Notes under the pieces: generated by a model | What the model was told of the DNA's origin: nothing | Seen by the model: the letters and a program-made list of their open reading frames with translations, nothing else | The model's database searches: none | Translations under genes and position numbers: made by a program | Origin: Patescibacteria group bacterium | GTDB taxonomy: Bacteria; Patescibacteriota; Patescibacteriia; Patescibacteriales; JAQTRU01 | DNA: 64,000 nt | Direction: 5' to 3' | Assembly (NCBI GenBank): GCA_041645555.1 | Contig: JBAZPX010000004.1 | Location: 10,334 to 74,333, forward strand | Part shown: positions 4,219-53,057 of the stretch, piece by piece | Position numbering within the stretch: position 1 is the first letter of the stretch | Layout of the letters: each line of letters opens with the position of its first letter

Positions 4219-4265
4219 GTTTTTAATCACATTTTCTCTATCAAAAGAACAAAAGATAAAAATAT

Positions 4266-4290: not shown

Positions 4291-4298
4291 AAAAAAAG

Positions 4299-4486: not shown

Positions 4487-4513
4487 TTCGCATGTGCCGC
4501 ATTTGTAGCGCGG
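4487..4513. repeat. 27-nt hairpin motif ttcgcatgtgccgcatttgtagcgcgg (second copy at 42217-42244)
   Basis: Near-identical string at both loci; contains the hairpin ccgc-atttgtag-gcgg. Confidence 0.6.
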
Positions 4514-4575
4514 CTTTTTCCCGACCGCGTGTCGCTAAAGCTTTAGCGGTGGCGCAAGGGAAAAATAACTTAAAT

Positions 4576-5076: not shown

Positions 5077-5439
5077 TTTTAAGGATATAAATTTTGCCCG
5101 ATTTTGCTTTAAGGCTTCCATTTGTATATAAAAATCCCTACCTTTCCATATAGTATGAAAAAATGTAGGGATTTTCTTATCTATGTTATTATCTTATCAC
5201 AGGCAATGAAAAAAGTCAACCAAATTTTTAGAATTTTCACTAAGATTAAACAAAAATAGCTTATTTCTCTTTTGATTTCCTGCTTTGCTCAAAAAATAGC
5301 TTTAATTTCCTAAAATTCAAGATATTGACAAAAATTTTCGTTTATAGTATGATACTATAATGTTCTTTGAGAAATATGGCATTTTACTATATTCTTTACC
5401 AATAAAACAACTCGTTTCCTCTTAGAAGGAGGGTTTGAA

Positions 5440-5982
5440 ATGAAAAGGATCGCGACAATGATTTCGGTGCCGATCATGGTTTTATTAATGGTCGGCTGCG
5501 CCAGTATGCGGAGCGCAACTGTGTCAACAAGCGGAAGCAGCATAAGCTTCAAAGAAAAAAATTTCAGCTTGTTGAGCCCGTCGATTAACCCATACGAGAT
5601 GGCCGAACTGATTGACGCCCAGGCCAGGGCAGAATACATGAAAAACCTGGTCAACAAAACCGGGAGCGGAAAAAAGCTCGGCAACTATTTGATAGCAATC
5701 ATCAATAATGACCCGAGCCAGGAAGCCTATTTCTTTAATCCCGAAATCCCGGGATCGAGAATAACCCTTAAACCCAACGGCGGATTTTTTTTCTTGTCGG
5801 TCCAAACCATACCGGCGGAAATAGCCCTCTACAGGAAAAATGGGGGAAACGCCGAAATATTTTACAAGTTGTATCCGCTTGACGATATGAGTGTGGGGCG
5901 ATACAACGACAGCGTTGGATACAAAAAAAGCGTAATGGGGGTCGAAGTCGACCAAAGGTACATTATTAATAAGATCTATTAA
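5440..5982 (+). CDS. hypothetical lipoprotein
   Basis: Strong SD (aaggaggg) 6 nt upstream. Signal peptide with lipobox LMVGC. No recognisable domain. Confidence 0.6.
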   Translation: MKRIATMISVPIMVLLMVGCASMRSATVSTSGSSISFKEKNFSLLSPSINPYEMAELIDAQARAEYMKNLVNKTGSGKKLGNYLIAIINNDPSQEAYFFNPEIPGSRITLKPNGGFFFLSVQTIPAEIALYRKNGGNAEIFYKLYPLDDMSVGRYNDSVGYKKSVMGVEVDQRYIINKIY

Positions 5983-5996
5983 CGAGAACAAACGAA

Positions 5997-6026
5997 AAGG
6001 ATGCCCGCACCGGACATCCTTTTTTC
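5997..6026 (+). terminator. intrinsic terminator
   Basis: aaggatgcccg-cac-cggacatcc followed by a T-run. Confidence 0.6.
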
Positions 6027-6049
6027 ATTTTTATTATATTTTCGCTATT

Positions 6050-6520
6050 CTAACCTTTAGACACATCAGCCCCGCCAACCCAATTCATACTGTTAAACAC
6101 GAAATAAGTAATGGCATAAGCTGAAACTGTAATAATTAAGCCGATTACCGCCCGCCAGATTGTTTCTTTCGCTTCCGTCATTTTTTCTTCATTGCCGGAC
6201 GCGGTCATCCATTTATACCCGGCCGTAATCATCAAAACTAAAAAAATAACGCCCAACAATCCTAAAAAAGCCTGGATTACCACGGCCAAAATTCCCGCAA
6301 AAGATGATCCGGTGGCGGCGGCAAAACCGGATTTACCCCTAAAAGCTTCCGCCTGCTCGCTACCTGCCGGGCCAAACCCTTGGGCTAAAGCCAAATCAGC
6401 GATTCTAAAATTTAAGACAGACAACACTAAAAATGCTAAAAAATAGTTTACCCCGTTAGCCCCGCTTAGAAATTTATTTCTAACGGGGTTAATAGGGTTT
6501 GTTTTTTTATAAAAATTCAT
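6050..6520 (-). CDS. TrbC/VirB2-like (T4SS pilin-like) small membrane protein, paralog 1
   Basis: Signal region plus two TM helices. Shared loop motif ITAGYKWMTASGNEEKM. Confidence 0.7.
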   Translation of the reverse strand: MNFYKKTNPINPVRNKFLSGANGVNYFLAFLVLSVLNFRIADLALAQGFGPAGSEQAEAFRGKSGFAAATGSSFAGILAVVIQAFLGLLGVIFLVLMITAGYKWMTASGNEEKMTEAKETIWRAVIGLIITVSAYAITYFVFNSMNWVGGADVSKG

Positions 6521-14390: not shown

Positions 14391-14457
14391 ATGACCAGAA
14401 AAATAAAAAGACCTTAATCGGCCTTTTTATTTTATTATTTTATTATTTTTTTATTTT

Positions 14458-14868
14458 TTAAGGTATGTATTTTTTATATTCCTTTTCCTCCTCAAGCTTT
14501 TTTTTCCTTTCCGGTATTTTCAACAGGGATTTAGCAATAAAAACAAGCCAAACCAGCATAAAAACCGCCCAAAGAAGAAGCCAAAAACGGGAGGACAGGA
14601 AGGGAATAAATTCATAATTAAAAAAAAGTAGAATTAAACCGATAAAAGCATTGGCCAGGGAGAAAGAAGAAAGCCGCCGCCAAAAAGAAGCATAAAGGCC
14701 TCCTTTTTTAGCGATAAAAAGACGGTAGAAAAGAAAAAAAACGACCAAAGCCAAAACAAAAATAATAAAAATCTTTTGGTAAATAGGCAGAAGCGCGTCC
14801 GGCCTGAGATTAAACCAAAATTTTAGTGATAAAAGATTCCCCATAATTTTAAAAATAAAATAATACAA
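14458..14868 (-). CDS. hypothetical membrane protein
   Basis: Four hydrophobic helices and a K/E-rich C-terminus. The start may be the internal Met at 14844. Confidence 0.45.
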   Translation of the reverse strand: MYYFIFKIMGNLLSLKFWFNLRPDALLPIYQKIFIIFVLALVVFFLFYRLFIAKKGGLYASFWRRLSSFSLANAFIGLILLFFNYEFIPFLSSRFWLLLWAVFMLVWLVFIAKSLLKIPERKKKLEEEKEYKKYIP

Positions 14869-14941
14869 GAATAAAATAATAAAGTAATTTATTTCAGCAT
14901 CCTATTATTTTATTTTTATATTATTTTGTTATTTTATTATT

Positions 14942-15496
14942 TTACAGCTTAACAAATAAAATCCCAAAATGATACTGGCCGGCTTCAAATTCGTCCTCTA
15001 TTTCCAACCCTAATTTCTTTGCTCCAATTTTCAAGAGATCCGGCTTAACCCTTTCTTCTGGCGGCGGCCCAAAAGGGGAAGACACGTTCTTCCACTCTAC
15101 TACTAATAATTTCGCCCCTTTTTTGAGCATCCTTATGGCTTCCCGCAAGATTTCCACTCTTTTATGGGATTGATACAAGGTATTTATAAGCAAAGCCACA
15201 TCAAGGCTGCCCGATTCTATCCTGGTGGCTTTAAAAACCTCCAAATCGCTCCAAACCGTCCTGATGTTCCCTATGTTTTCCTGCTTAACCCTTTTATCAA
15301 TTCCCCCTAAAACCGTTTTTAAAATATCAACGGCATAGACAACGCCTCTTTTGCCAACCATTTTCGCGGCGGGAAAAATAAAATGCCCGGAAGCGCCGCA
15401 GCCCAAATCAGCTACTTTTATATTTTCCGTGATTTGCGCTTTGCTTAATATAAAATCCGCGTCAAGCAAAGCATTTCCTCCTGTAACCCTAAACAT
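14942..15496 (-). CDS. class I SAM-dependent methyltransferase
   Basis: Motif I VADLGCGASGHF; 184 aa. Confidence 0.65.
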   Translation of the reverse strand: MFRVTGGNALLDADFILSKAQITENIKVADLGCGASGHFIFPAAKMVGKRGVVYAVDILKTVLGGIDKRVKQENIGNIRTVWSDLEVFKATRIESGSLDVALLINTLYQSHKRVEILREAIRMLKKGAKLLVVEWKNVSSPFGPPPEERVKPDLLKIGAKKLGLEIEDEFEAGQYHFGILFVKL

Positions 15497-16730: not shown

Positions 16731-18143
16731 TTATAATTCTTCCTTCGTTATCGTCTGCTGGACCCTTTTCGCCCCCAAATTTAGAATTTCTTCAATTTTC
16801 CCATCGCCCGCTACCGCCGAATCAATCATCTCCCCCATAATTAGTTCAGCCGCATTGGCATCTTCGCCATGATACCAGCTTTGGGCGGTTAGAACCTGGC
16901 CGGCAAAAACGTTTACATTCTCGTCTTCAATCTGCTCATTAACTAAAGAGCGCAGAGCGGTCGGTTTTTTTGTCTTAGCCAGATATAATTTTGCCTGTTC
17001 GGCCTTAGTGGCAAATTGGATAAAATCCCAGGCTTCGTTTATATATTTGCTTTTATTAGAAACCGTCTCCACCCAATAATTGGCAAAGTTTGTATTACCT
17101 AAGTTGCCCTCTATCTGCGGCAGTTTAGCAATGGCGAAATTCAATTTCGGCGCCCTGGCCTCTATAGTCGGAAGATGGTAAGCATAGCCAAACATCAAGG
17201 CAAGTTTGCCGGCGATAAACATTTCTAGGGAATTATCCAAACTGCTGTTCCAGCTGTAAACCTCTTTGGCTGGGTTGGAAAAATCCGTATAAAAACGCAG
17301 GGCCTCCAGACCGGGGCTGTACTTCTGTTCTTTTAAAGCCTCGGGAATCAGGTTAAAAACAATGTTACCGCTTTCATCCTCCATAACTGCGCCGTTCTGC
17401 ATCATTAGGATAGACAAAATATCACCATAGCGCTCTATATTTTTGCTTCCTCCCAAAGCCACGCCTGATTGGATAATCTTCCCGGCGGTATCCTGTTTGG
17501 TCAATTTTTTTACGGTCTGTTGAAATTCCTGGTTCCAAAAAGAAGGCGGCTCGGCCACGCCGGCGTTATTAAAAAGGTCCTTGTTATAATACATGGCTAG
17601 GGTATCAAGAGCTAGGGGCAAACCGAATATTTGTTCGCTTGTTTTACCGGTCTTTGAGTCTGTAACCGGCAGGACTATATCATCATACACTACATCAACG
17701 AAATTATCTTTTACATTCCGGAAATTTATGCTTTTTGTTGTTTTTAATTCCTGTACGATTTCTTTTTTAATCGTGCCTTTTTCAACCGGATAAACCATAG
17801 TAATTTCCGCCGGCAAAGGCGCCAGTTTGCTTTGGTATTTTTTTATCCAGGTATTGTGGAGGGAAAGAATGTCCGGTCCCTTATCTTCGGCCATCGCTTC
17901 TAAGAGCGCCTGCTCATATTCGTTATAGCGCAATTTTCGATAGTTAATTGTTATGTAGGGATGAAGAGTTTTATAATTGGCCATAATTTCCTCAAAAGCG
18001 TCCGGACCGTCCCAAACCCGCCAATAATTTAAAACTACCGGCTTCATCGCCTCTTGCGTTGCCTTGTCCGCTCCCTTACAGCCAAAACCAGAGGTTAAAA
18101 GAAAAGAAAAAATAAGCAAAAGAATAAATAATTTGTTCCTCAT
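16731..18143 (-). CDS. ABC transporter substrate-binding lipoprotein (family 1, sugar-type)
   Basis: 470 aa. Lipobox SGFGC. Typical extracellular solute-binding protein layout. Confidence 0.7.
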   Translation of the reverse strand: MRNKLFILLLIFSFLLTSGFGCKGADKATQEAMKPVVLNYWRVWDGPDAFEEIMANYKTLHPYITINYRKLRYNEYEQALLEAMAEDKGPDILSLHNTWIKKYQSKLAPLPAEITMVYPVEKGTIKKEIVQELKTTKSINFRNVKDNFVDVVYDDIVLPVTDSKTGKTSEQIFGLPLALDTLAMYYNKDLFNNAGVAEPPSFWNQEFQQTVKKLTKQDTAGKIIQSGVALGGSKNIERYGDILSILMMQNGAVMEDESGNIVFNLIPEALKEQKYSPGLEALRFYTDFSNPAKEVYSWNSSLDNSLEMFIAGKLALMFGYAYHLPTIEARAPKLNFAIAKLPQIEGNLGNTNFANYWVETVSNKSKYINEAWDFIQFATKAEQAKLYLAKTKKPTALRSLVNEQIEDENVNVFAGQVLTAQSWYHGEDANAAELIMGEMIDSAVAGDGKIEEILNLGAKRVQQTITKEEL

Positions 18144-18153: not shown

Positions 18154-18247
18154 CTACAAATTACAAATCTATTACAAATTTACGAATACAATATAAAACT
18201 TTTTAGCAAGAATTTGTAAATTTGTAAGGAATTTGTAATTCGTAAGG
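18154..18247. repeat. TACRAAT hairpin element, copy E1
   Basis: ctacaaattacaaat..tacgaataca / ..tttgtaaatttgtaagg..tttgtaattcgtaagg: inverted arms built from tacaaat/tacgaat heptamers. Confidence 0.8.
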
Positions 18248-18328: not shown

Positions 18329-19867
18329 TTACTCCACTCTCGGCCGGTACTGCAAGGCCTCGGCGATATGCGGAGTTAAAACCTTTTCCTCGCCGGCTAA
18401 ATCCGCAATGGTCCGGCCTAATTTCAAAATCCTAAAATAAGCCCGGGCGGAAAGGTGCATCTGGTCAACGGCCGCGCGCAGAAGCTCGTGCGAAGAATTG
18501 TCCACCTGGCAGAACTCTTTTACCGCTTCGGAATTCATTTCCGAATTAGTGACAAAAGGAGTATTTTTAAATCTCTCGGCCTGAATCTTCCGAGCCGCTT
18601 CAATTCTAACCTTTATAGCCTCCGAAGTTTCTCCCCGGCCCTCGCTTGTAAGCTTATCAAACTTCAGGCGCGGCACTTCAATGTGAAGGTCAATGCGGTC
18701 AATAATCGGGCCGGAAATTCTTTTGCGGTAATTTATAATCTGCCCGGGGGCGCAGGTGCATTGCCTTTCCTTATCTCCGTAAAACCCGCAAGGGCAGGGA
18801 TTCATGGCCGCCACTAAAATAAACTTAGCCGGAAACCTTAAGTTGCCCGCGGCCCGGCTCACGTTAATTACTCCGTCTTCCAGGGGCTGGCGCAGGTTTT
18901 CCAAAACCTGGCGGGGAAATTCCCCGAATTCATCCAAAAAAAGAACGCCGCGATGAGCCAAAGAGATTTCGCCCGGCCTGGGCCACGTGCCGCCGCCAAC
19001 CAAGGCCACGCCCGAAGCCGTATGATGAGGAGAGCGAAAAGGCCGGGTGGTGAGCAAAGCCGTTTCGGTCGGCAGCTGGCCGGCCACGCTATAAATTTTG
19101 GTTATTTCTAAGGCTTCATCTAAAGTTAAATTGGGTAAAATTGAAGGCATGGTCCGGGCAATTAAAGTTTTACCGGCTCCGGGCGGTCCGAACATTAAAA
19201 CATTATGAGCCCCGGCCGCGGCAATTTCTACCGCCCGCTTGGCATGCTCCTGGCCCCGGACATGAGCCATATCGGAAAAAATCTTTTCGTTGGAAAAATT
19301 AAATTCTTTATAACCGGCGGGCGGGATTGGTTCCTCCCCATTCAAATGCCGGGCCAGCTGGCCTAAATTATCAAGAGGAATAACCTCCAGCTCTTGTATC
19401 AGCTTAGCTTCGGGAGCGTTTTCTTTTGGCACAAAAATAGTCTTTATGCCGACCTGCTTAGCTTTTAGGGCAACCGGCAAAATACCATTTACGGACCGCA
19501 CCTGGCCGGACAAAGCCAGCTCCCCGACAAAAAGCATTTTCTCACTATCGGGGGGAGAAAAAATACAATTGGTTTTTACTAAAATGCTAACGGCAATCGG
19601 CAGGTCATAACTCGGCCCGTATTTTTTTAAATCCGCCGGCGCTAAATTAACCGTTACTTTTACCCTAGGAAAATTGAACCCCGAATTCTTTATCGCGCTT
19701 CTTACCCTTTCCCTTGATTCCGAAACCGCCGCATCCGGCAGGCCGACAATCGCAAAAGTGCCAAGCTGCCCGCCGCCTGTATCCGCTTCTACTTCTACCA
19801 GTTCCGCTTCCAAGCCAACCACGGCCGCCGAAATTATTTTTGAAGACATAGTCTTAGAAATTTTCAA
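18329..19867 (-). CDS. comM: YifB/ComM-family Mg-chelatase-like AAA+ ATPase
   Basis: 512 aa. Lon-like N-terminal domain, Walker A GPPGAGKT, Cys cluster CPCGFYGD..CTC. Confidence 0.85.
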   Translation of the reverse strand: MKISKTMSSKIISAAVVGLEAELVEVEADTGGGQLGTFAIVGLPDAAVSESRERVRSAIKNSGFNFPRVKVTVNLAPADLKKYGPSYDLPIAVSILVKTNCIFSPPDSEKMLFVGELALSGQVRSVNGILPVALKAKQVGIKTIFVPKENAPEAKLIQELEVIPLDNLGQLARHLNGEEPIPPAGYKEFNFSNEKIFSDMAHVRGQEHAKRAVEIAAAGAHNVLMFGPPGAGKTLIARTMPSILPNLTLDEALEITKIYSVAGQLPTETALLTTRPFRSPHHTASGVALVGGGTWPRPGEISLAHRGVLFLDEFGEFPRQVLENLRQPLEDGVINVSRAAGNLRFPAKFILVAAMNPCPCGFYGDKERQCTCAPGQIINYRKRISGPIIDRIDLHIEVPRLKFDKLTSEGRGETSEAIKVRIEAARKIQAERFKNTPFVTNSEMNSEAVKEFCQVDNSSHELLRAAVDQMHLSARAYFRILKLGRTIADLAGEEKVLTPHIAEALQYRPRVE

Positions 19868-29583: not shown

Positions 29584-29934
29584 CTAATTTGGGATCATGA
29601 ACTTGCCACAACGGCACTTTACTAATTTCCTCTCTCCCATGCCATCAATATCAACGGTGATTGTGGGATTCGGAGAATGTCCACAATACCAGCATTGGCC
29701 GTCGTAATCTCTGGCATAAGACAGGCCGCAAAATTCTGAATAGCTTATTCTTGGTTTCTCCGGCGCTTTTGGCTTTGCTGGTTCCTTTTTCCGGAAAAAG
29801 GAAAGCGGAATCGGCGTGGTTGAACCGATTGGAAAAAATTTTTCGCCGCACACATAGCCGAAACGGCGGCCACCGTCTTTTGGCATCTTACCATTGTGCG
29901 TAATTACTATGATCTGCGCTCCAGCGTCTGACAT
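29584..29934 (-). CDS. hypothetical small Cys-containing protein (zinc-ribbon-like C-terminus)
   Basis: 116 aa. CWYCGH...CRCG. G+C-richer than the surroundings. A G9 tract lies 4 nt upstream of the ATG. Confidence 0.45.
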   Translation of the reverse strand: MSDAGAQIIVITHNGKMPKDGGRRFGYVCGEKFFPIGSTTPIPLSFFRKKEPAKPKAPEKPRISYSEFCGLSYARDYDGQCWYCGHSPNPTITVDIDGMGERKLVKCRCGKFMIPN

Positions 29935-29938
29935 GCTA

Positions 29939-29947
29939 CCCCCCCCC
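29939..29947. repeat. homopolymer C9 (G9 on the coding strand) 4 nt upstream of the start codon
   Basis: Read directly: gacatgcta-ccccccccc-tg. Confidence 0.9.
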
Positions 29948-30135
29948 TGTTTAAGAGAAAAATGAACAATTTTTCTTTACCTTAAACCATTATTTTTAAA
30001 ATGTCAACTGAAAAATAATTTTCCCTTGACCTTTCTTCTGGATTATGTTAATTTTATAATATTCTAATAACTTAATATCTAATGACCTTTTCTTGGATAT
30101 GGCTTGGCGCCCATTTCTCGGATAAGGCAAAAACT

Positions 30136-30525
30136 ATGCTTACCAGAAAAGACAAGCAAAAAATCATCGCTAAATTCAGAACCCATGATAATGACACGGG
30201 TTCGCCCCAGGTCCAGATTGCAATTTTAACTGAAGAAATTAAGCAACTGACCGAACATTTAAAAAACCATAAGCATGACCATTCTTCCCGGCGCGGACTT
30301 TTAAAGAAGGTCGGGGAAAGAAGAAGATTATTAAAATATCTGCAGAAGGAAGATGAAAAATCTTTTAAGGATTTAACAGGCCGGCTTAAATTAAAAATCG
30401 CCAAAAGAATGCAGGAAGAGGAAGACGAAAGAATAAGGATAGAAGAAGAACTGAATAAAAAAGATGAAATAAAAGTAGAGGAAGAAGAAGCGGTTGAGCC
30501 GGCTAAAGAAGACGAAGAAGAATAA
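30136..30525 (+). CDS. rpsO: 30S ribosomal protein S15 with a ~40-aa acidic C-terminal extension
   Basis: ORF trimmed to MLTRKDKQKII. GSPQVQIAILTEEI..L..HLK.HKHDHSSRRGLL then ..EEEDERIRIEEE..EEEE. Confidence 0.85.
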   Translation: MLTRKDKQKIIAKFRTHDNDTGSPQVQIAILTEEIKQLTEHLKNHKHDHSSRRGLLKKVGERRRLLKYLQKEDEKSFKDLTGRLKLKIAKRMQEEEDERIRIEEELNKKDEIKVEEEEAVEPAKEDEEE

Positions 30526-30601
30526 TTCTAGGAAATCCCGTTTTTTCAGATTATTAACCTAATATCTAATAAGAAGTTACACGGTTCGCCAAATTTTAAT
30601 T

Positions 30602-30698
30602 CCCACAAATCAACAAATCTTTTCACAAATTTACAAATACGCTATAAAACGTTTCTACAAAAATTTGTAAATTTGTAATAAATTCGTAATTTGTAAAG
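30602..30698. repeat. TACRAAT hairpin element, copy E2
   Basis: cccacaaatcaacaaat..cacaaatttacaaatac / ctacaaaaatttgtaaatttgtaataaattcgtaatttgtaaag. It ends 1 nt before ATG 30700. Confidence 0.75.
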
Positions 30699-30699
30699 T

Positions 30700-31194
30700 A
30701 TGATAAAGCATGAAGAACAGCGGGTGGGTGTTTTTGTTGATGTGTCCAACATGTACCATTCCGCCAAGAATCTTTACAGTAAGAAAGTTAATTTCAAAGA
30801 AATCCTGAAAGATGCGGTGGCCGGGCGGAAACTAATCCGGGCTACCGCTTATGTTATAAAAACGGAAAGTGAGGAAGAATTGCACTTTTTTGAGGCCTTA
30901 AGCCAGCAGGGCTTTGAAGTCAGGATGAAAGACTTGCAGATTTTTGCCGGGGGCATAAAAAAAGCGGACTGGGACGTAGGCATAGCGGTTGACGCCATAA
31001 AGTTAGGAGATAAGCTTGACGTCATAATTTTAGTTTCAGGAGACGGCGATTATTTGCCCTTAATGAGTTATCTGCAAAATACCAAGGGGTGCCTGGTGGA
31101 AGTAATGGCTTTCCGGCAGACCGCCTCTTCAAAATTAATAGAAGAGTCAGACGATTTCACAAATTTAAGCGATAATAGAAAATATCTAAGATAA
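30700..31194 (+). CDS. NYN-domain (LabA/DUF88-like, PIN-related) putative RNase
   Basis: VGVFVDVSNMYHSA..ATAYV..DWDVGIAVDAI...DVIILVSGDGDYLPL. Confidence 0.75.
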   Translation: MIKHEEQRVGVFVDVSNMYHSAKNLYSKKVNFKEILKDAVAGRKLIRATAYVIKTESEEELHFFEALSQQGFEVRMKDLQIFAGGIKKADWDVGIAVDAIKLGDKLDVIILVSGDGDYLPLMSYLQNTKGCLVEVMAFRQTASSKLIEESDDFTNLSDNRKYLR

Positions 31195-31200
31195 TAACTC

Positions 31201-31292
31201 CTACAAATTACGAATTTATTACGAATTTACAAATATAATATAAAACGTTTTAATGAAAATTCGTAAATTTGTATAAGATTTGTAATTCGTAG
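31201..31292. repeat. TACRAAT hairpin element, copy E3
   Basis: ctacaaattacgaatttattacgaatttacaaata / aattcgtaaatttgtataagatttgtaattcgtag. Confidence 0.8.
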
Positions 31293-31326
31293 ATAATAAA
31301 TTACTAATTAACTAATTACTAACTTA

Positions 31327-31389
31327 CCTTGGCCGTTAGATAGATAGCGCTGTGAGTGCTCCTCATAGTTCTGTAATCTAGCGGTCAGG
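31327..31389 (+). promoter_or_regulatory. pnp 5' leader stem-loop
   Basis: ccttggccgttagat (31327-31341) pairs with atctagcggtcagg (31376-31389). The pairing includes three G-U pairs that work only on the + (mRNA) strand. It ends 9 nt before the ATG. Confidence 0.45.
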
Positions 31390-31398
31390 ACTAAAAAA

Positions 31399-33678
31399 AT
31401 GAAACAAGAAGAACAAGTTTTTGAAACGAAGTGGCTTGACCGCCCACTCACTATTAAAACGGGCAAATTAGCTAAACAGGCAGATGCCGCCGTTACCGTC
31501 CAGTACGGGGAAACGGTAGTTATGGCTACGGTCGTGGAATCAAAAGGAGAAAGAGAGGGAATTGATTATTTCCCTTTGATGGTCGATTTTGAAGAACGGC
31601 TTTATGCCGCCGGAATTATTAAGGGTTCGCGCTGGATAAAAAGAGAAGGCCGGCCTTCGGATGAGGCGGTTTTAACCGGCCGGATGATAGACCGGGCAAT
31701 CCGGCCTCTTTTTAACGAAGCGTCCCGAAAAGACGTCCAGGTTATTATTACGGTCCTGTCCGTTGACCAGGAAAACGATTATGATATCGCTTCTTTAGTC
31801 GCCGCTTCCGCGGCCCTGTCTATTGCCGGCGTTAATTGGAACGGTCCGATTGCCGGTATAAGGGTCGGCCGTCTTGAGGGCAAATTTATTTTTAATCCGA
31901 CCTATGAAGAAAGAATAAAAAGCGACCTTGATTTAATCGTGGCCGGAACAGAGAAAAAAGTAATAATGCTAGAAGCCGGAGCGAGCGAAGTAAAAGAAGA
32001 AGAAATAGAAAAAGCTATTATGGCCGGGCAGAAGAATCTTCAGGAAGCGATAAAGTTAATTAAAAAAATGGTTAGCGCAGTTAAGCCAGAAGCAAAAATA
32101 GCCAAAAATAAATTAAAAAGCCAGGAAGAGATAGAAGCGGAAAAAGAAAAAGAAAAACTATTCACGGAAACGAAAAAATGGCTTAAAGAAAATATCGCTC
32201 CGATTCTTTTTGATAAAACTTATTATACTAAAGGAGAGAGAAAAGCAGCTGTCAAAGCGATTGAGGAAAAACTGGACGAATATCTTTTCTCGTCCGGCAT
32301 CGGACGCGACCGCCGGCAGGAAATAATTAAAAAACTGGTTTCTCCGGCAGTTGAAGCTGAGGTCACAACGGCAATTTTAGAAAATAAAAAACGAGTTGAC
32401 GGAAGGAAACTTGATGAAATAAGACCTTTGACGGCCGAAGCCGGGATCCTCCCGCGCAATCACGGTTCCGGACTCTTTTCCCGCGGCGAAACCCAGATTA
32501 TGTCTATTGTCACTTTGGGCGCGCCCGGATTAGAGCAGTCTTTAGAAGGCCTTGAAGGCAACAGTAAAAAAAGATTCATGCACCATTATAATTTTCCGCC
32601 CTATAGCGTCGGTGAAGTAAGCCCCTTGAGAGGAGCGGGCCGAAGAGAAATCGGGCATGGCGCTTTGGCGGAAAAAGCTTTAATGACTCTTATCCCAGCT
32701 AAAGAAGATTTTCCCTATACGATCAGATTGGTGAGCGAAACCCTTGGTTCAAACGGATCTTCTTCTATGGGCTCAACTTGCGCCTCCAGCTTAGCCATGA
32801 TGGACGCCGGCGTGCCAATTAAAAAAGCCGTAGCCGGAATTGCTATGGGCCTGGCTTCTAACGCCGACATGAGCCAATGGGAAATATTAACCGACATCCA
32901 GGATTTAGAAGACGGTAAAGGCGGCATGGACTTTAAAGTCGCCGGGACTCGAGACGGTTTAACCGCCATTCAGCTTGATACTAAAACCGACGGTCTGTCT
33001 GAAGAAATAATTAAAAAAACTTTAAAGCAGGGAAGGATAGCTTTAGATAAAGTTTTGGCAGTTATGGAAAAAGAGATTAAGGAACCGCGGCCGGAACTGT
33101 CTAAATACGCTCCCCGCATTATTTCTTTCCGCATTGATCCGGAGAAAATCGGTTCAGTTATCGGTCCGGGCGGAAAAATTATTAATAAAATAATCGCGGA
33201 AACGGAAGTAACGATTGATATCGAAGACGACGGCTTAGTGATGATTTGCGGCCTTAACCCGGAAAAATGCCAGGAAGCGGCTAAGCAGGTAAAAGACATA
33301 GTCCGGGAATTCGCGGCCGGAGAAATCTTTACCGGCAAAGTTGTCCGGATGCTTGATTTCGGAGCCTTCATTGAATTAGTCCCGGGCCATGACGGCATGG
33401 CGCACGTGAGCGAACTGGCGCCTTACCGCATCGGCAAGCCAAGCGATTTCTTAAAAGTCGGGGATACAGTCACGGTTAAAATTAAAGAGATAGACGAGCA
33501 GGGCCGGGTTAACTTAACTTTGAAAGGTTTGCCGGAAAACGAGCATCTCTGGAAAGACGGTAAAGGTAAATCTGAAGGCAACGGATTCGGGGGCGGCGAT
33601 GGAAGGCCAAGATTCGGAGGCGGAGGCGGACGAGACAAATTCTCCGGACGCGGAGGCGGAGGCGGACGAAGGTTCTAA
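31399..33678 (+). CDS. pnp: polynucleotide phosphorylase with a Gly/Arg-rich C-terminal tail
   Basis: 759 aa. Two RNase PH domains, KH and S1 (FTGKVVRMLDFGAFIEL). Tail GGGDGRPRFGGGGGRDKFSGRGGGGGRRF. Confidence 0.9.
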   Translation: MKQEEQVFETKWLDRPLTIKTGKLAKQADAAVTVQYGETVVMATVVESKGEREGIDYFPLMVDFEERLYAAGIIKGSRWIKREGRPSDEAVLTGRMIDRAIRPLFNEASRKDVQVIITVLSVDQENDYDIASLVAASAALSIAGVNWNGPIAGIRVGRLEGKFIFNPTYEERIKSDLDLIVAGTEKKVIMLEAGASEVKEEEIEKAIMAGQKNLQEAIKLIKKMVSAVKPEAKIAKNKLKSQEEIEAEKEKEKLFTETKKWLKENIAPILFDKTYYTKGERKAAVKAIEEKLDEYLFSSGIGRDRRQEIIKKLVSPAVEAEVTTAILENKKRVDGRKLDEIRPLTAEAGILPRNHGSGLFSRGETQIMSIVTLGAPGLEQSLEGLEGNSKKRFMHHYNFPPYSVGEVSPLRGAGRREIGHGALAEKALMTLIPAKEDFPYTIRLVSETLGSNGSSSMGSTCASSLAMMDAGVPIKKAVAGIAMGLASNADMSQWEILTDIQDLEDGKGGMDFKVAGTRDGLTAIQLDTKTDGLSEEIIKKTLKQGRIALDKVLAVMEKEIKEPRPELSKYAPRIISFRIDPEKIGSVIGPGGKIINKIIAETEVTIDIEDDGLVMICGLNPEKCQEAAKQVKDIVREFAAGEIFTGKVVRMLDFGAFIELVPGHDGMAHVSELAPYRIGKPSDFLKVGDTVTVKIKEIDEQGRVNLTLKGLPENEHLWKDGKGKSEGNGFGGGDGRPRFGGGGGRDKFSGRGGGGGRRF

Positions 33679-33726
33679 ATAACAAAATAATATAAAAATA
33701 AAATAATAAAATAAAATTTGTATAAA

Positions 33727-33764
33727 CGTAGGGGCAGCACAATATGCTGCCCCTACGTGTTTTT
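33727..33764 (+). terminator. intrinsic terminator after pnp
   Basis: cgtaggggcagca-caata-tgctgcccctacg followed by tgttttt. Confidence 0.75.
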
Positions 33765-42825: not shown

Positions 42826-42857
42826 TTGGAATTTAATTATTGGTTATTAAAATTTTT

Positions 42858-43556
42858 ATGCAATTTCACATCATCACAATTTTTCCTGAAATTTTTGCCT
42901 CATACTTCAATGAGTCAATTTTAAAGCGGGCGCAAAAAAATAAAATCGTAGATATTAAAATCCACGACTTGCGACAATGGGCAGAGGGCAAGCACCGGAC
43001 TGTTGATGATACCCCTTATGGCGGCGGCGCCGGCATGGTTATGAAAATAGAACCGATCTTTAAGGCCCTGCTGGCTTTAAAATTCCAAATTTCAAATTCC
43101 AAATTTCAAACAAAATCCAAAATCCAAATTTCAAAAACTAAAACTGTTTTATTATCAGCTAAGGGGAAAAAATGGGACCAGCAGCTGGCGAGAAAATATT
43201 CCAAGCTTGATGAAATAATTCTAATCTGCGGGCGCTACGAAGGAGTGGATGAAAGAGTAAAAAAATTCGTTGACGAGGAAATTTCTATCGGCGATTACGT
43301 TTTAACCGGCGGAGAAATCCCGGCTATGGCGATAGTCGATTCTATCACCCGCCTCCTGCCGGGCGTTCTAGGCAATGCTTCAAGCGCTAAAGACGAGTCG
43401 CATTCCGTTCCCGGAGTTTTAGAATACCCGCAATATACCCGGCCGGAAATTTTTACAGCCAAAGGGAAAAAATACCAGGTACCAAAGATCCTCTTATCTG
43501 GAAATCACAAAAAGATAGAGCAATGGCGAAGGGGAAAACAAAAAAGATTAAAATAA
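42858..43556 (+). CDS. trmD: tRNA (guanine37-N1)-methyltransferase
   Basis: ORF trimmed to [26 protein letters not shown] and [10 protein letters not shown] motifs. Confidence 0.9.
43078..43143. repeat. AT-rich low-complexity insertion (ttccaaatttcaaa-type) inside trmD
   Basis: aaaattccaaatttcaaattccaaatttcaaacaaaatccaaaatccaaatttcaaaaac encodes [22 protein letters not shown] similar string in the other orientation lies at 1198-1232. Confidence 0.55.
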
Positions 43557-43604
43557 TAAAAAGGTGCGCTCTAACTAACGTACCTTTTTTATATTATTTT
43601 ATTT

Positions 43605-44612
43605 TTATATTATTTTAAAATGGTTGCCTTCTTTTTCTATTTTCCCTTCTAAGACAAACCCGGAAGCCTTGGTATGCCCCCCGCCTCCTAACTTATTGGC
43701 CAGGGTGGAAACATCCACTTTCGGGTGCGCGCTGCGCAGGCTTCCTTTTAATTTTCCTCCTTTTTCTTCCCGCAAAAACAAAACTCCTTTCACCCCGTAT
43801 AAATTGCTTAAGAATCCGGAGATGGAATCAAAAACATCTTCATTGTCGTCCGGGGAAAATTTTTCTATTTCGGCTAAAGTCAAAACGGAAAAAGCGAAAT
43901 TATATTTTTTGTTTATTTTTAAATTATTTAAAGCCAGGCCCCAGACTTTCATGGCCGGCAGGCTTTTATTATACAAAGTGTTTTTCACAATCCGGGGAAA
44001 CCTGGCTCCGCAAAGAAGCATTTCCGAGGCGATATTAATTGATTTTTGCGAAGTCGCGGAATAGAGAAAATTGCCGGTATCGGTTAAGATCCCGGTTAAA
44101 ACACAATCAGCAATATTTTTATTTATTTTTATTTTATTAGCCTTGAAAAAATAATAGAGAATTTCAGTGGTGGCGACCGCTTCGGGTTTTCTTATTTCTA
44201 AATCCGAGCGGTTGCCGTTTTTCAGATGGTGGTCAAGTTCGATGAAAAACTGGTTAAAGCCCCTGCCTTCTATTTCTTTTCCCAGTCCGGTCCGCTCTAA
44301 GCTGCCGCAGTCCAAAGCGATTATTAAGGTAAAATCCCCAAAGTCCAGCTGCGGGTTTCCCGAAGAAAACGCTAGCTTATCGAAAATAATTTTTTCCGTA
44401 TGGGGGAGAAACGAATACTGATTGATGGGCTCGCCCGGGCAGAAAGCCGTATATTTTTTGCCCAAACCTTTGCATAGCTCAATCATCGAGCAAAGCGAAG
44501 ATACCGCATCGCCGTCAGCGCGCTCGTGAGTCACTAAAAGAATATTTTCCGCTTCTTTTATTTTCTGATAAACTTCCAGAAATTTAGCGGTTATAGCTTT
44601 ATCTAGATTCAT
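43605..44612 (-). CDS. nrnA: DHH/DHHA1 phosphoesterase (NrnA-like oligoribonuclease/pAp phosphatase)
   Basis: HERADGDAVSS, DHH motif ELDHH, GGGGHTKASGF. Confidence 0.75.
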   Translation of the reverse strand: MNLDKAITAKFLEVYQKIKEAENILLVTHERADGDAVSSLCSMIELCKGLGKKYTAFCPGEPINQYSFLPHTEKIIFDKLAFSSGNPQLDFGDFTLIIALDCGSLERTGLGKEIEGRGFNQFFIELDHHLKNGNRSDLEIRKPEAVATTEILYYFFKANKIKINKNIADCVLTGILTDTGNFLYSATSQKSINIASEMLLCGARFPRIVKNTLYNKSLPAMKVWGLALNNLKINKKYNFAFSVLTLAEIEKFSPDDNEDVFDSISGFLSNLYGVKGVLFLREEKGGKLKGSLRSAHPKVDVSTLANKLGGGGHTKASGFVLEGKIEKEGNHFKII

Positions 44613-44704: not shown

Positions 44705-45037
44705 CTACATTTCTTTTATTTCTTCCAATAATTTTTCAATCTTACTGGCTTCTTCCTCGGTTGAATCAATCACCCAGCCAAATTTCGGGATATGCCTTAA
44801 GCGGGTTTTCTTTTTTAAAATTCCGGTAAATAAGCTTGAATGCCCCCTTAAAACTTTTAAAGCCGTGCCGGAGAGATTAACCGGCAGAACGGAAATTCCG
44901 ATTTTGGCCCTGGTTAAATCAGGGGAGCAATCGACAAAACTCACTGTGATCAGGCCGTCCTTTAAATAAACCTCCCGGTTGATTAAATCGGCTATATTTC
45001 TTTTTATCAGCTCATTAACTCGTTCTGGTTGGGGCAT
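44705..45037 (-). CDS. rbfA: ribosome-binding factor A
   Basis: 110 aa. RVNELIKRNIADLI... Immediately downstream of infB, as in the nusA-infB operon. Confidence 0.8.
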   Translation of the reverse strand: MPQPERVNELIKRNIADLINREVYLKDGLITVSFVDCSPDLTRAKIGISVLPVNLSGTALKVLRGHSSLFTGILKKKTRLRHIPKFGWVIDSTEEEASKIEKLLEEIKEM

Positions 45038-45047: not shown

Positions 45048-45140
45048 CTACGAATTACGAATTTTTTACGAATGTACGAATACTAATATAAACATTCTTA
45101 ATATAAAATTCGTATATTTGTACTTATTCGTAATTCGTAG
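45048..45140. repeat. TACRAAT hairpin element, copy E4
   Basis: ctacgaattacgaattttttacgaatgtacgaatac / aattcgtatatttgtacttattcgtaattcgtag. Fills the infB-rbfA spacer. Confidence 0.8.
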
Positions 45141-45144: not shown

Positions 45145-47124
45145 TTAAATTTTTTCTTTCACTTTCTCTGTTTTATAGAACTGCAGGATATCGCCTTCTT
45201 TTATTATTGGCTTGCCTTCATACTGCAACCCGCATTCCTGGTTCTCTTCCGCCGAATCAATATTTTTCTTGTTTAATTGCAAACGGATTACTTTGCCTTT
45301 TTCAATCACCTCGCCTCCCCGCGTTACTTCCGCTAAACTGTTAGCCTCTATCCGGCCGGATAAGACTTTACCGCCGACAATTTGGCTTCCCGGGTCGGTT
45401 CGGAAAATCGCCAGGACTTTTAAGCGCCCCAAATCAACCATTTTTATTTCCGGTTCCACTAATTTTTCCATCTCCTCTTTAATATAATCAAGCAAATCAT
45501 AAATTATTTTAAAAACATTAACTTTAATTTCTTTTTCTCTGATTAAATTTTCAATTGTCGGCGGAATCTTGACGTTAAACCCGATTACTTGAGCCCCCGA
45601 ATCTTCCGCTTTCTTTATATCCCCCTCGGTAATATTACCCAGCCCCTTGCTTATAATTTTAACTTTTATATTCTCGCCGCTTATCTTAGCCAGAGACTCT
45701 TCAATCGCCTCGGCCGAGCCCAAAACATCGCTCTTTATAACCAAATTGACTTTTCTAACCTCATCATCGCCGTTTTCGGCCTGCTGGACGACATTGGTCT
45801 TTCCCCGCCTTACTTTTGACTCAAGGGAATGAACGTTTTTCATTCTCTCTCCTTCCCCGACTTCTAAAATATCCCCGACGGCCGGCGAAACTTTTAAGCC
45901 TAGGACCCGGGCCGGATTGGAAGGCCCGGCTTCGGTAATATTCTCGCCCTTATAATTTTTTAAAGCCCGCACCTTGCCGTAAGCGTTATTATTAAAGCAA
46001 AGGCTGTCGCCCACCCTTAAAGTTCCGTTCTGGATTAAAATCGTGGCCACCGGACCGGCGCCTTTGTCGACATGGGATTCAATGACGGTTCCGGCCGCGG
46101 CCGAATCCGGATTGGCTTTCATATTGCCGGCTTCCATGTCCGCCACGAGTAAAATCATATCCAGCAAATCTTCCACGCCCTGGCCGGTCTTAGCCGAAAC
46201 CGGGGCGCAGATAATTTTTCCGCCCCAGTCTTCGGGCTGAATATTAAGCTGAGCGGCCAATTCCTGCTTAGTTTTATTTATATCGACTTCCGGTTTGTCT
46301 ACTTTGTTTATGGCGACGACAAAAGGGATATGAGCCGCTTCAATAATCCGGAAAGCTTCAACCGTCTGCGGCTTTACTCCGTCGTCAGCCGCCACAACCA
46401 GGATAGCAATGTCAGCGACGCGAGCGCCGCGGCTGCGCATCGCCGTGAAAGCTTCATGCCCGGGAGTATCAATAAAAGTAATGGCCCGGTTTTTTCTCAT
46501 TACCTGGTAAGCTCCTATATGCTGGGTTATGCCTCCGGCTTCACCGGCCACCACGTCGGTTTTTCTGATAGCGTCTAAAAGCTTTGTTTTGCCATGGTCA
46601 ACATGGCCCATAACCACAATTACCGGCGCCCGGTTCTGCAGGTTTTTTTTCTCTTCCCGGCCTAAAATTTCGCCTAATTTATTTTCTCGGTTGTCCTCTT
46701 CCCCTTCTTTTCTTTCATCAAACTTAATTTCTAAACCCAAATTTTCCCCGACAATCGCCGCTGTGTCAAAATCAATTTTTTCATTCATGGAAGTAAAAAT
46801 CCCGTTTTTCATCAGTTCAGCCAAAACTTTATTAACCGGCAGGCCGGCCAAAGCGGCAAAATCCCTGACAATAATAAAATTAGGCACTAAAACAATTTTT
46901 TTCTCCTCAACTTTTTTTTCTTCTATAACCTCCTCTTTATTTTCCGCCTCTTTCTCCCTTTTAAGCTGCCTCATCAGACCCGGCCATTCTTTAATAATTT
47001 TTTGCGCTTCCCGATTATCAATCTTAATAGCTTTTTGGCCAATATGAAAACCGAGCTGCGGCAAGAGGTCGCGCAGTTCCTGCGGATTAACTTTTAGGAT
47101 TCTGGCTAATTCAGTTACATTCAT
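45145..47124 (-). CDS. infB: translation initiation factor IF-2
   Basis: 659 aa. [17 protein letters not shown] and NKVDK G-motifs. Confidence 0.9.
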
Positions 47125-47806: not shown

Positions 47807-48466
47807 TTAAACCTGAGATTGCTTCGTCGCTACGCTCCTCGCAATGACATGCGCCACACCAGCCACTGGCCCGAAACTAAAACGATGAATCGGGCAGGGC
47901 CCGTATTTTTTTAAATTCTCCAAATGCAATTTAGTGCCATAGCCTTTATGCCGGTCAAAGCCGTACTGCGGATACTGTTCATGGAATTTTTTCATCAATC
48001 TGTCCCGGGTTACTTTGGCGATAATGGAAGCGGCCGCAATGGAAAAAACAAGGCTGTCCCCCTTTATAATATTTTTCTGCTCACCAGAATAATTGGGGAT
48101 TTTAAATCCGCCGTCAAGCAAAACGAAATCCGGTTTTTCCTTTAAAGCCCCCAAAGCTTTTTTCATGGCCAAAAAAGTCGCCTGAAAAATATTTATTTTA
48201 TCAATGGTTTTATTGTCGCAAATGCCGATTCCGATTCCAAATTGCTCTTCAATAACAGAGAACAGTTCTTCCCGCCGGGAAGCGTTTAAAATTTTAGAAT
48301 CCGCTATCAGTTTTAATTTCTCATCTTCGGCAATAAATCCGGCCGGCAAAACCACGCAGGCGGCCACGACCGGGCCGGCTAAAGGCCCCCGACCGGCTTC
48401 GTCCAGGCTGGCGATTAGTTTATAACCTAAAGAAAATAAATTTTTTTCTTCTAATAAATCCAACAT
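47807..48466 (-). CDS. rnhB: ribonuclease HII
   Basis: DEAGRGPLAGPVVAA and DSK motifs. The last ~14 codons come from the repeat element. Confidence 0.85.
   Translation of the reverse strand: MLDLLEEKNLFSLGYKLIASLDEAGRGPLAGPVVAACVVLPAGFIAEDEKLKLIADSKILNASRREELFSVIEEQFGIGIGICDNKTIDKINIFQATFLAMKKALGALKEKPDFVLLDGGFKIPNYSGEQKNIIKGDSLVFSIAAASIIAKVTRDRLMKKFHEQYPQYGFDRHKGYGTKLHLENLKKYGPCPIHRFSFGPVAGVAHVIARSVATKQSQV
47815..47848. repeat. gtcattgcgag...cgaagcaatc element, copy b (inverted; forms the rnhB C-terminal tail)
   Basis: gagattgcttcgtcgctacgctcctcgcaatgac encodes ..VIARSVATKQSQV at the end of rnhB. Confidence 0.7.
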
Positions 48467-51508: not shown

Positions 51509-51832
51509 GGCGGACCTCCATTTTCTATTGTTTTACCTTTTTAATGTACCTGTTAATGTGCCCGCATAAACATTACACTATACCAAAGTTTCTTTCTTTT
51601 GTCAAGGATTATGTACACCCTGGTACCAAGCGCGAGAACTTGTTTTAAAACCTTAGGTTATATATTGCTTCGTCTCGTCCCCGCGCCATCGCCAAAGCTA
51701 TAGCGGCGTGCGATCGAAGTCCCGCAGCATTGTGGGACGGAGTGGGGTCAAGATATTTATAAAATTAAATCATGCTTTCCCCAGGTTATCCACGGCTATA
51801 ATTTTAGCTAACATTAGCAAAAATAAAAAGAA

Positions 51833-51854
51833 AAGTCCACTAAAACGTGGACTT
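51833..51854. repeat. palindrome P4 (aagtccac-taaaac-gtggactt)
   Basis: Same half-sites as P1-P3. Flanked by the DnaA-box-like TTATCCACG (51786-51794) and TTATCCCCA (51853-51861). The string agctaacattag is shared with 4058-4069. Confidence 0.7.
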
Positions 51855-51874
51855 ATCCCCAATTTATAAAAAAT

Positions 51875-51906
51875 GACTTAAGTCTACAAAAACGTGGACT
51901 AAAGTC
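51875..51906. repeat. palindrome P5 (gacttaagtctac-aaaaac-gtggactaaagtc), imperfect
   Basis: Same family, with two arm mismatches. Confidence 0.6.
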
Positions 51907-51915
51907 TTAACAAAT

Positions 51916-51948
51916 GTCATTGCGAGGAGTGTAGCGACGAAGCAATCT
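51916..51948. repeat. gtcattgcgag...cgaagcaatc element, copy c
   Basis: gtcattgcgaggagtgtagcgacgaagcaatct. Confidence 0.7.
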
Positions 51949-52900: not shown

Positions 52901-53030
52901 GGACATTAACCATTAACTTTTAACAGTTAACAATTAACAGATTAATGTTCTACGTAAAACTTTTAAATGGTTATAACTAACTTTTTGGCTAATATTAAAT
53001 AAAAAACTAATAAAACGTTATCAAATTATG

Positions 53031-53057
53031 ACTTTAGTCTACAATAATGTGGACTTT
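53031..53057. repeat. palindrome P6 (actttagtctac-aataat-gtggacttt)
   Basis: Same half-site family. Lies between tRNA-Ala and the tRNA-Arg fragment. Confidence 0.6.

Follow-up and report, generated by a model that had tools for sequence, protein, structure and literature searches.

The window, a stretch of 64,000 nt from a Patescibacteria group bacterium (contig JBAZPX010000004.1, positions 10,334 to 74,333), carries four palindromes of ~92 nt, here named E1 to E4, in the spacers between protein-coding genes assigned by Pfam. E2 (30602-30698) and E3 (31201-31292) lie in the locus of ribosomal protein S15 (rpsO, 30082-30525), a NYN-domain protein (PF01936, 30700-31194) and PNPase (pnp, 31399-33678). 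E2 separates rpsO from the NYN gene, and E3, a full copy, separates the NYN gene from pnp. E1 (18154-18247) is a full copy between the genes of a ComM-type Mg-chelatase (comM, 18329-19867, minus strand) and a solute-binding protein (16731-18143, minus strand). Likewise, E4 (45048-45140) is a full copy between the minus-strand genes of IF-2 (infB, 45145-47124) and RbfA (rbfA, 44705-45037). The four copies of shared architecture described in the initial annotation were all recovered at these positions, with arms and folds far above chance, and the flanking genes are co-oriented in 4/4 cases. The close bracketing of the NYN gene was also confirmed: E2 ends 1 nt ahead of its ATG, and E3 starts 6 nt past its stop codon.

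E1-E4 align along their entire length. Each arm has the architecture (t)C-TACRAAT-TACRAAT-n4-TACRAAT-n-TACRAAT, with heptamer spacings of 7, 11 and 8 nt. The loops comprise 24-26 nt and contain ATATAAA(A)C in all four copies, and the inverted right arm ends in GTAG. Seven of the eight window arms match 28/28 fixed positions of the arm template, compared with 21/28 for the best of 20 Markov-shuffled windows. These include both arms of E1 (18154-18187 and 18212-18246), both arms of E3 (31201-31234 and 31259-31292, enclosing a loop at 31235-31258) and the left arm of E4, the right arm of which deviates solely by a 3-nt spacer. In E2, the right arm (30663-30695) is perfect and the left arm (30602-30638) is decayed, its heptamers reading CACAAAT, CAACAAAT, CACAAAT and TACAAAT. 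TACRAAT occurs 43 times in the window (expected 21.3 ± 4.2), and 29 of these 43 occurrences fall within E1-E4. Scoring with the arm template revealed no further copies elsewhere in the window, degenerate ones included.

As RNA, E1-E4 fold with energies between -14 and -35 kcal/mol (z-scores between -4.0 and -8.1 relative to dinucleotide shuffles). E4 is the most stable (-35 kcal/mol, z = -8.1), followed by E1 (-26.1 kcal/mol, z = -6.7 on the plus strand; -27.4 kcal/mol, z = -6.9 on the minus strand), E3 (-24.8 kcal/mol, z = -5.8) and the partly decayed E2 (-14.2 kcal/mol, z = -4.0). In a scan of positions 29900-31500 for sigma-70 promoters and intrinsic terminators, no signal exceeded that of shuffled sequences, and the elements are thus not canonical promoters or terminators. 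In a comparison with Rfam, nothing in the window but tRNAs passes the gathering threshold, the best E-value across 30500-31420 being 3.8, and no covariance model matches the elements. The orientation of the loops is independent of transcription, with two copies each way. GC skew as an indicator of replication direction tracks gene orientation and is uninformative.

Repeat family and hairpin fold

E1-E4 are members of a previously undescribed interspersed non-coding repeat family. A scan with a perfect-arm pattern across one genome per species yielded at least 119 loci in other genomes, with fewer than one match expected by chance as estimated from base composition. These loci, designated by L-numbers, were read as 8-kb chunks or as flanks of up to 10 kb around a queried gene. 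The basic unit is an arm of ~34 bp with four direct TACRAAT heptamers, and copies usually consist of two such arms in inverted orientation that enclose a variable loop, the length of which ranges from 0 to >110 nt across the family. Conserved across 141 arms are the heptamers, a C at position -1 and, more weakly, a T at -2; spacers and loops are free. Where the two arms are separated, the interiors are unrelated to each other, as in L024, with an open reading frame (ORF) resembling by eye a GxxExxY-type protein, and in L048, with a Cys-rich ORF. In the literature, no paper matching the exact element strings (TACGAATTACGAAT and related) was found, nor anything relevant on miniature inverted-repeat transposable elements (MITEs) or palindromic repeats in the Candidate Phyla Radiation (CPR). 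Viral contigs gave 0 matches and phage records none; in plasmid records, the only matches were of 31 nt, in Borrelia genes, and due to chance.

Among the matches listed, the hosts are mostly Patescibacteria (Moran-, Falkow-, Parcu-, Berkel-, Buchanan-, Roizmanbacteria and others). Seven of these loci belong to Bacteroidota and were kept as genuine because two of them encode the phylum-specific proteins TamL (L070) and GldB (L031); the other tested loci encode proteins of free-living metabolism. Four further loci among the matches listed are assigned to Omnitrophota by label alone. A number of binchicken metagenome-assembled genomes (MAGs) labelled 'uncultured Gammaproteobacteria' or 'Bdellovibrionales' contain Patescibacteria-like genes (L001, L004, L006, L015, L027, L030, L061, L090 and others). 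L015 is 96% identical to the Patescibacteria contig L078, and other such MAGs are syntenic with Patescibacteria contigs. Judging from gene content and synteny, these MAGs appear to be mislabelled Patescibacteria; since their labels are unreliable, they were left out of the cross-phylum evidence.

The loops are alike within one genome and unlike between genomes, which is a signature of intragenomic copying. Copies in the MAG JACRNW01 share one common loop that occurs in both orientations. Similarly, the rRNA operon of L006 contains three copies with near-identical heptamers and related loops, two of which have identical arms and 4-nt spacers.

To characterize the fold, 29 distinct copies were compared with their loops swapped for a fixed tetraloop. 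Shared ancestry of related copies weakens the statistics, but the spacers are very diverse. Pairing reaches 96% in the stems. Between heptamers 3 and 4, the 1-nt spacer covaries (21 A-U, 7 U-A, 1 C-G and 0 broken pairs), as does the position directly outside the first heptamer. The 4-nt spacer is paired in 28% of the cells if G-U is included, and its Watson-Crick pairs number 16/112, compared with 27.4 ± 3.6 for shuffled letters and 39 ± 5 for exchanged partners. This low pairing argues that the arms are not mutual copies and that a 4x4 internal loop is kept open. Taken together, the pairing and the open loop indicate that the selected object is the folded hairpin, composed of a 14-bp stem, the internal loop, a 15-bp stem and the variable loop. 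Stem sequence is under constraint as well as the fold. Covariation of the R/Y positions between arms is not above within-element permutation, and 0/4 of these positions are Watson-Crick paired in E3. Mismatches do not favour G-U on the sense strand (21 vs 16), and as a test for selection on RNA this comparison is uninformative. Folded as DNA, single arms reach only -0.1 to -1.6 kcal/mol (z of -0.8 to +0.9); single arms thus do not fold, and the unit is not a stem-loop of the repetitive extragenic palindromic (REP) type.

Placement in spacers, rRNA and coding sequence

The loci listed contain ~146 arms or elements, most of them between co-oriented genes and with outer ends typically 0-14 nt from a stop or start codon. 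The neighbours are housekeeping genes, encoding ribosomal proteins S10/S12/S7/L14, EF-G/Tu/IF-2, NusG, ATP synthase, type IV pilus components and glycolytic enzymes. Strict arms abut stop codons in 50 cases and start codons in 59 (median distance ~7-9 nt), and unpaired arms lie at 24 starts vs 15 stops, a difference that is not significant. On these counts, a start-proximal module of the 5' untranslated region (UTR) or promoter was rejected. In Bacteroidota, the outer end of the single arm lies 1-5 nt upstream of the start codon in 4/7 loci (L051, L079, L072, L031) and 26 and 35 nt upstream in two more; these arms could have a 5'-UTR role in a phylum without Shine-Dalgarno use.

In the rRNA operon of L006 (23S at 2078-6187, 5S at 1770-1888), two near-identical TACGAAT hairpins are located inside the 23S gene, in gaps at E. 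coli positions 540-621 and 1155-1234, corresponding to the helix 25 and helix 45 regions. Apart from an intron with a LAGLIDADG homing endonuclease, these are the only large gaps in the alignment with E. coli 23S rRNA. The third L006 element lies in the 23S-5S spacer, where copies are also found in L001/L016 and L041. The 23S gene of L006 has a length of 4110 nt compared with the 2925-nt model, and its LAGLIDADG ORF is located at 3028-3492. In L094, the helix-25 and helix-45 sites of the 23S gene hold hairpins of a different family, made of AATCCCAA/TTGGAAAT arrays. The intervening sequences (IVSs) that RNase III excises from 23S rRNA are classically located at helix 25 and helix 45, and many uncharacterised short insertions at these sites in CPR 23S genes are considered probable RNase III IVSs, their sequence being undescribed (PMC11270868). 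The L006 elements resemble such IVSs in that they occupy exactly these two sites as an extended hairpin, and among the copies compared this holds for L006 only. In contrast, no genome-wide family of intergenic repeats is known to include classical IVSs, and the window copies are located in mRNA spacers.

Seven single arms were found inside long real ORFs, all in the stop-free TACRAAT orientation and in one frame that encodes ..TNYE.xTNI(R/Q)ITN.. (7/7). In ileS, they are located at the variable loop ahead of the WTTTPWTLP motif (L035 1673-1713 and L100 1828-1861; a decayed trace in L022 at ~4560-4620). The other loci are L042, L089, L037 and L015/L078, with a predicted rRNA adenine dimethylase, assigned by eye from its motifs, among the hosts. 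The in-frame arms are predicted to fall in surface loops of the proteins. REP elements are also found inside genes (PMC3733652). The copies in rRNA and ORFs are hard to square with locus-specific regulation and are typical of selfish repeats under selective filtering.

The same placements bear on the idea that the heptamers form duplex-DNA operator arrays bound by a conserved regulator or nucleoid protein. Heptamer binding has precedents in the heptad-binding omega and CtsR proteins and in the NarL heptamers, and the strict 7-mer with its tolerated R, the variable spacers and the direct repeats within an arm would all fit, as would the half-elements close to the start codon in 4/7 Bacteroidota loci. 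However, the neighbours form no coherent regulon, stop codons are abutted as often as start codons, copies occur within 23S rRNA and ORFs, and the promoter-like signal is not above chance. In addition, covariation at the 1-nt spacer and avoidance of complementarity at the 4-nt spacer favour a folded form over independent duplex sites. Operator arrays are therefore regarded as improbable.

The rpsO-NYN-pnp locus in related genomes

A synteny analysis showed that the order rpsO-NYN-pnp is kept in 9/9 lineages (L115, L120, L121, L126, L127, L129, L131, L133 and L134), while the elements are variable and the NYN gene occurs without them. The window has the decayed E2 upstream of the NYN gene and E3 downstream of it. 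In STD1_219 (L120) and the MAGs L121 and L122, with a 98% identical NYN protein, the rpsO-NYN spacer is 17 nt long and lacks an element, and the NYN-pnp spacer (L120, L121) of 95 nt is likewise element-free. STB_181 (L126, NYN 97%) has the same decayed E2 and, at the E3 site, an unrelated repeat of ~270 nt with CCAAATC-type arms. L127 combines an empty rpsO-NYN spacer of 20 nt with a TACAAAT element of different loop between NYN and pnp, and L129 has its own copy in each spacer. In L131, the rpsO-NYN spacer holds a copy with small hairpins nested in the 4-nt spacers; its NYN-pnp spacer has no TACRAAT element and contains the pnp leader hairpin described below, followed by another palindromic repeat. 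The rpsO-NYN spacer carries a TACGAAA/TGCGAAA variant in L133 and is 3 nt long in L134; both have an extra small ORF between NYN and pnp.

E2 is thus absent from five relatives (L120, L121, L122, L127 and L134), with spacers of 3-20 nt there. The E3 element is missing from L120, L131, L133 and L134 and replaced in L126, and the loops differ where the site is occupied (L127, L129, L115). Independent copies are present in the rpsO-NYN or NYN-pnp spacers of L127, L129, L131 and L115. When a metagenome was scanned for E3 sites of the same species that lack the element, 0 matches were obtained. Since E2 and E3 are dispensable in close relatives, they are not a conserved control device of the operon. 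From these comparisons, both appear to be dispensable spacer fillers that were gained or lost repeatedly.

The initial annotation had proposed that the NYN gene and its two flanking copies form a composite insertion into the rpsO-pnp operon. Taken as a mobile insertion into an ancestral operon, this would agree with the close bracketing by E2 and E3 and with E. coli, in which no gene is known between rpsO and pnp. The element-free rpsO-NYN-pnp order in L120 and L121 (and, on the rpsO-NYN side, L122), with 98% identical NYN, refutes this reading, and its probability is negligible. The same order is accompanied by a single element or by other repeats in L126, L127, L131, L133 and L134. Moreover, NYN is better conserved than pnp (84% vs 69% amino acid identity between the window and L115), E2 and E3 are no more alike than other pairs, and their arms form no direct or inverted composite.

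A second proposal, that the NYN nuclease specifically recognises or cleaves the hairpins, found no support. It draws on the adjacency in the window and in L115, on the nuclease fold of NYN domains (PF01936) and on the conserved partnership with rpsO and pnp, and the latter makes a role in RNA metabolism likely. Nevertheless, in a tblastn search with the window proteins against the at least 119 loci, NYN was found beside an element only in L115, which is orthologous to the window region, and close relatives keep NYN without a flanking element. The element is also present in genuine Bacteroidota contigs, which would count against such action if those genomes lack this NYN protein. A precedent for sequence-specific action is lacking, the nearest solved structure being 2QIP, of which the function is not known. 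Specific action of NYN on the hairpins is thus very improbable. NYN is a highly conserved core gene, with more than 7,900 homologues, the 120 best of which show an identity of at least 83%, and it has no special tie to the flanking repeats. Independent of the repeats, the conserved gene order makes it a candidate RNA-decay partner of PNPase.

Upstream of NYN, the S15 ORF encodes 147 aa, with the Pfam domain at residues 25-104 and a Glu/Lys-rich C-terminal tail of ~45 residues that is common to relatives; the true start may be an internal Met at residue 19. A further short-repeat array of the NYN-pnp spacer, a triple 8-10-nt repeat, CGCGGACTA..CGCGGACTAAT..CTGACTGACGCGGA, begins immediately past the NYN stop codon in L126 (1995-2045) and L133 (1990-2040).

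In E. coli, the rpsO-pnp spacer carries a long hairpin that is processed by RNase III and controls pnp. E3 resembles it as a long stem-loop between an upstream gene and pnp. In contrast to such a leader, E2 and E3 are not conserved in position, E3 is not retained upstream of pnp in several relatives, and the hairpin that is conserved and covaries has another sequence. This stem-loop (31328-31389) is located directly 5' of the pnp start (31399) and is kept in 8/8 aligned sequences (the window plus seven relatives), irrespective of the surrounding repeats. Of the 19 pairs predicted by RNAalifold, 3 show compensatory changes. This stem-loop is probably the true leader or autoregulatory hairpin of pnp, and it is this hairpin rather than E3 that is the likely counterpart of the E. 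coli regulatory hairpin.

Turnover was also observed at other sites. The comM-solute-binding protein spacer of L107 contains a different GC-rich repeat and no TACRAAT element in place of E1. Conversely, L107 has a TACGAAT element upstream of smc that is found neither in the window nor in L120. A copy orthologous to E4 is present between infB and rbfA in the close relative L064 (1039-1129). Related genomes thus differ in the presence of the elements, as is known for the insertion polymorphism of MITEs.

A probable mobile repeat and its alternatives

Taken together, we consider it probable, though by no means certain, that the family is a mobile hairpin repeat similar to REP, Rickettsia palindromic (RPE) and ERIC elements, presumably selfish, which spreads and turns over within genomes and has come to lie beside NYN incidentally. 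In their behaviour, the elements are closest to dimers of REP sequences (REPINs), RPEs and ERIC/Correia elements; they are not REP sensu stricto, not a demonstrable MITE and not an attC site. They are distinguished by the modular four-heptamer arm, the maintained internal loop, the use of single arms and the occurrence of one 7-mer across phyla.

REP sequences and REPINs are GTAG-tagged, intergenic and mobilised by RAYT. Some of their copies are found inside genes, and the copies vary between related strains (PMC3733652). The family shares these two traits with them and likewise consists of short non-coding repeats, dozens per genome, that lie between unidirectional genes near stop codons. Many intergenic copies between unidirectional or convergent genes were found, both as singletons and as dimers, and as in REPINs the inverted dimers, the spacers of which vary, form a single long hairpin with GTAG at the outer ends. 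However, the REP unit is itself a stem-loop of 20-40 bp, whereas the TACRAAT arm, an array of four direct heptamers, does not fold by itself. The REP tag is unpaired; here, GTAG is present at most outer ends, pairs with CTAC and adjoins a covarying position. In addition, the TACRAAT 7-mer is cross-phylum, and no RAYT or IS200-like gene was seen near any copy listed: the ~1000 ORFs of the at least 119 loci (8-kb chunks) and of the window include no cognate RAYT.

RPEs are selfish palindromic repeats of ~100 bp without a known transposase that are found in intergenic DNA, in RNA genes and, as an in-frame peptide, in coding genes. The present family has the same three kinds of sites but differs in sequence and host range, in its modular heptamer arrays and in its in-frame copies, all of which are single arms that share one orientation and frame. 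ERIC and Correia/NEMIS elements are imperfect palindromes of ~100-150 bp in transcribed intergenic regions with effects on mRNA stability, and Correia elements are processed by RNase III. The likeness lies in the co-transcribed palindromic hairpin with internal insertions at fixed points, as seen for the nested hairpins of L131. Correia elements differ by their TA duplications, IHF sites and outward promoters; the present elements show neither a duplication nor a promoter signal, and their sequence is unrelated. Compared with MITEs, the elements have terminal inverted repeats (stems 96% paired); no target-site duplication was detected at E2 and E3, and the loci listed, viral contigs, phage records and plasmid records yielded no parent insertion sequence that shares their ends and encodes a transposase. 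The attC sites of integrons are similar in that they, too, lie between co-oriented genes and fold into a hairpin in which an unpaired central spacer separates two duplex boxes of protein size and the terminal loop varies. In contrast to attC, the elements have boxes that are direct repeats instead of inverted ones and lie among core genes, and neither GTTRRRY/RYYYAAC boxes (the R'/R'' core sites) nor an integrase or cassette array was found.

As a mechanism of mobility, we infer that a trans-acting factor reading the heptamers would propagate the elements within genomes as selfish DNA. Because the geometry of 14-bp stem, 4x4 internal loop and 15-bp stem is conserved, this factor probably recognises the folded hairpin, in single-strand DNA or in RNA. 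Copies survive at sites that tolerate a self-contained stem-loop or a short polar peptide, namely in short spacers of housekeeping operons, in rRNA spacers, at the tips of 23S helices 25 and 45 and, as in-frame single arms, in proteins. The four window copies would accordingly have landed in intercistronic spacers, two of them flanking NYN by chance. They are expected to be co-transcribed with the operons and to form long hairpins, in which the ~29-bp interrupted duplex is plausibly a substrate of RNase III or a barrier to 3' exonucleases; we infer such processing from the precedents of 23S IVSs, REP sequences and bacterial interspersed mosaic elements, ERIC and Correia elements. As a side-effect, the relative stability of the rpsO, NYN, pnp, infB and rbfA messages may shift. 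Since relatives lack the copies, any effect on the expression of flanking genes would not be a built-in control.

The neighbourhoods of the copies support the mobile repeat: all-against-all clustering of the ~1000 ORFs of the loci listed and Pfam analysis of 107 adjacent ORFs gave housekeeping families only, none of them enriched, and no transposase. Several observations weigh against a mobile origin. No mobilising enzyme was found, and a single IS200 TnpA query was without match. The 8-kb chunks leave the genome-wide censuses and the search for an arm-flanked gene incomplete. No target-site duplication was detected in filled/empty comparisons of E2 and E3 or in flank frequencies, where diverged flanks could hide 1-2 bp. 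An autonomous version was not seen, nor was a transposition event observed, and the turnover could partly reflect deletion or recombination rather than insertion. The NYN-pnp (L115, L127, L129) and infB-rbfA (L064) sites are occupied in distant lineages with intact heptamers and diverged loops, which could point to selection at the host level. Furthermore, the internal loop and the 1-nt covariation show a constraint on the fold that would suit a functional RNA no less than a mobility factor recognising hairpins, and one 7-mer across phyla is unusual, REP-like families being normally lineage-specific.

The main rival to the mobile repeat, and compatible with it, is RNA punctuation selected by the host: the hairpins would be processing or stability signals, acting through RNase III or otherwise, that uncouple cistrons and are excised from rRNA, with mobility being secondary. 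It is supported by the position of nearly all copies between co-oriented genes, tight between the stop codon and the next ribosome-binding site, by the filled NYN-pnp and infB-rbfA sites in diverged genomes, and by the 96% paired stems, the covarying but unrecognised 1-nt spacer and the conserved internal loop. Copies are also located in 23S-5S spacers and at the classical sites of RNase III-excised 23S IVSs, and short insertions in CPR 23S genes are viewed as probable IVSs of this kind (PMC11270868). On the other hand, E2 and E3 are missing beside a 98%-identical NYN, other repeat families substitute for them, and E2 is decaying. Sense-strand G-U pairs are not preferred (21 vs 16), the loops of the window copies show no fixed direction relative to transcription (two copies each way), a conserved 7-mer is unnecessary for RNase III, and single arms that do not fold persist in ORFs and upstream of Bacteroidota genes. 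Host-selected punctuation is therefore judged unlikely as the primary explanation. Of the earlier suggestion that the elements are transcribed processing or stability hairpins, the processing part is made plausible by the copies at 23S IVS sites and in 23S-5S spacers, and a conserved control of the operon did not hold up.

A further, tentative possibility is that an undiscovered protein reads the folded hairpin, with its 14-bp stem, obligatory 4x4 internal loop and 15-bp stem, and that the four-heptamer arm serves as its recognition module. This would constitute a new mobilisation or processing system, similar to attC/IntI or REP/RAYT with neither enzyme. Such a hairpin-reading system would be common to Patescibacteria, Bacteroidota and contigs labelled Omnitrophota, and would be the source of uncharacterised short intervening sequences in CPR 23S genes and of in-frame peptide insertions in core proteins. 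The 7-mer, the covarying position and the maintained internal loop imply a partner specific for both sequence and structure, which should be findable given the very small gene sets of these organisms. One family links three phenomena that are normally considered apart, namely intergenic palindromic repeats, short insertions at the 23S IVS sites of CPR and in-frame peptides in core enzymes, and its occurrence in Bacteroidota hints at DNA exchange with these episymbionts. For annotation, such hairpins and their sister families fill many Patescibacteria spacers and are not to be taken for locus-specific regulators.

Further repeats were observed in the window and in relatives. A second family consists of AATTGGAAATTGAAAA / AATTCCAAATTTCAAA arrays. 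It is present in the window as single arrays inside two ORFs (1179-1244 in ORF 355-1620 and 43073-43140 in ORF 42840-43556). Paired arrays of this family form the helix-25/45 hairpins of L094 (1700-1900, 2690-2850), and a member of the family occupies the E3 site of L126 (1995-2270). Small GC-rich hairpins such as CCTGCCTACCGGCAGGCAGG are nested in arms of L131 (1310-1490, exactly at the unpaired 4-nt spacers), L032 and L094 (380-400), which suggests that unpaired parts of the hairpin are insertion targets. Spacers at 14420-14960, 33678-33730 and 43585-43625 contain A/T-only arrays with an 8-nt period (ATAAAATA / TATTTTAT), some as inverted pairs. A 35-nt inverted repeat, AGATTGCTTCGTCGCTACGCTCCTCGCAATGACAT, the copies of which (47816-47850 and 51914-51948) are 97% complementary and 4 kb apart, brackets about four genes. 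Six copies of a small hairpin, ACTTAAGTCCAC-n6-GTGGACTTAAGT, are located near tRNA genes (4110-4290, 51827-51910 and 53029-53056). Two perfect DnaA boxes (TTATCCACA) are found at 4149 and 4169, and a replication origin or a region under DnaA control may be located here; in that case, E1-E4 lie on one replichore and in the same orientation.

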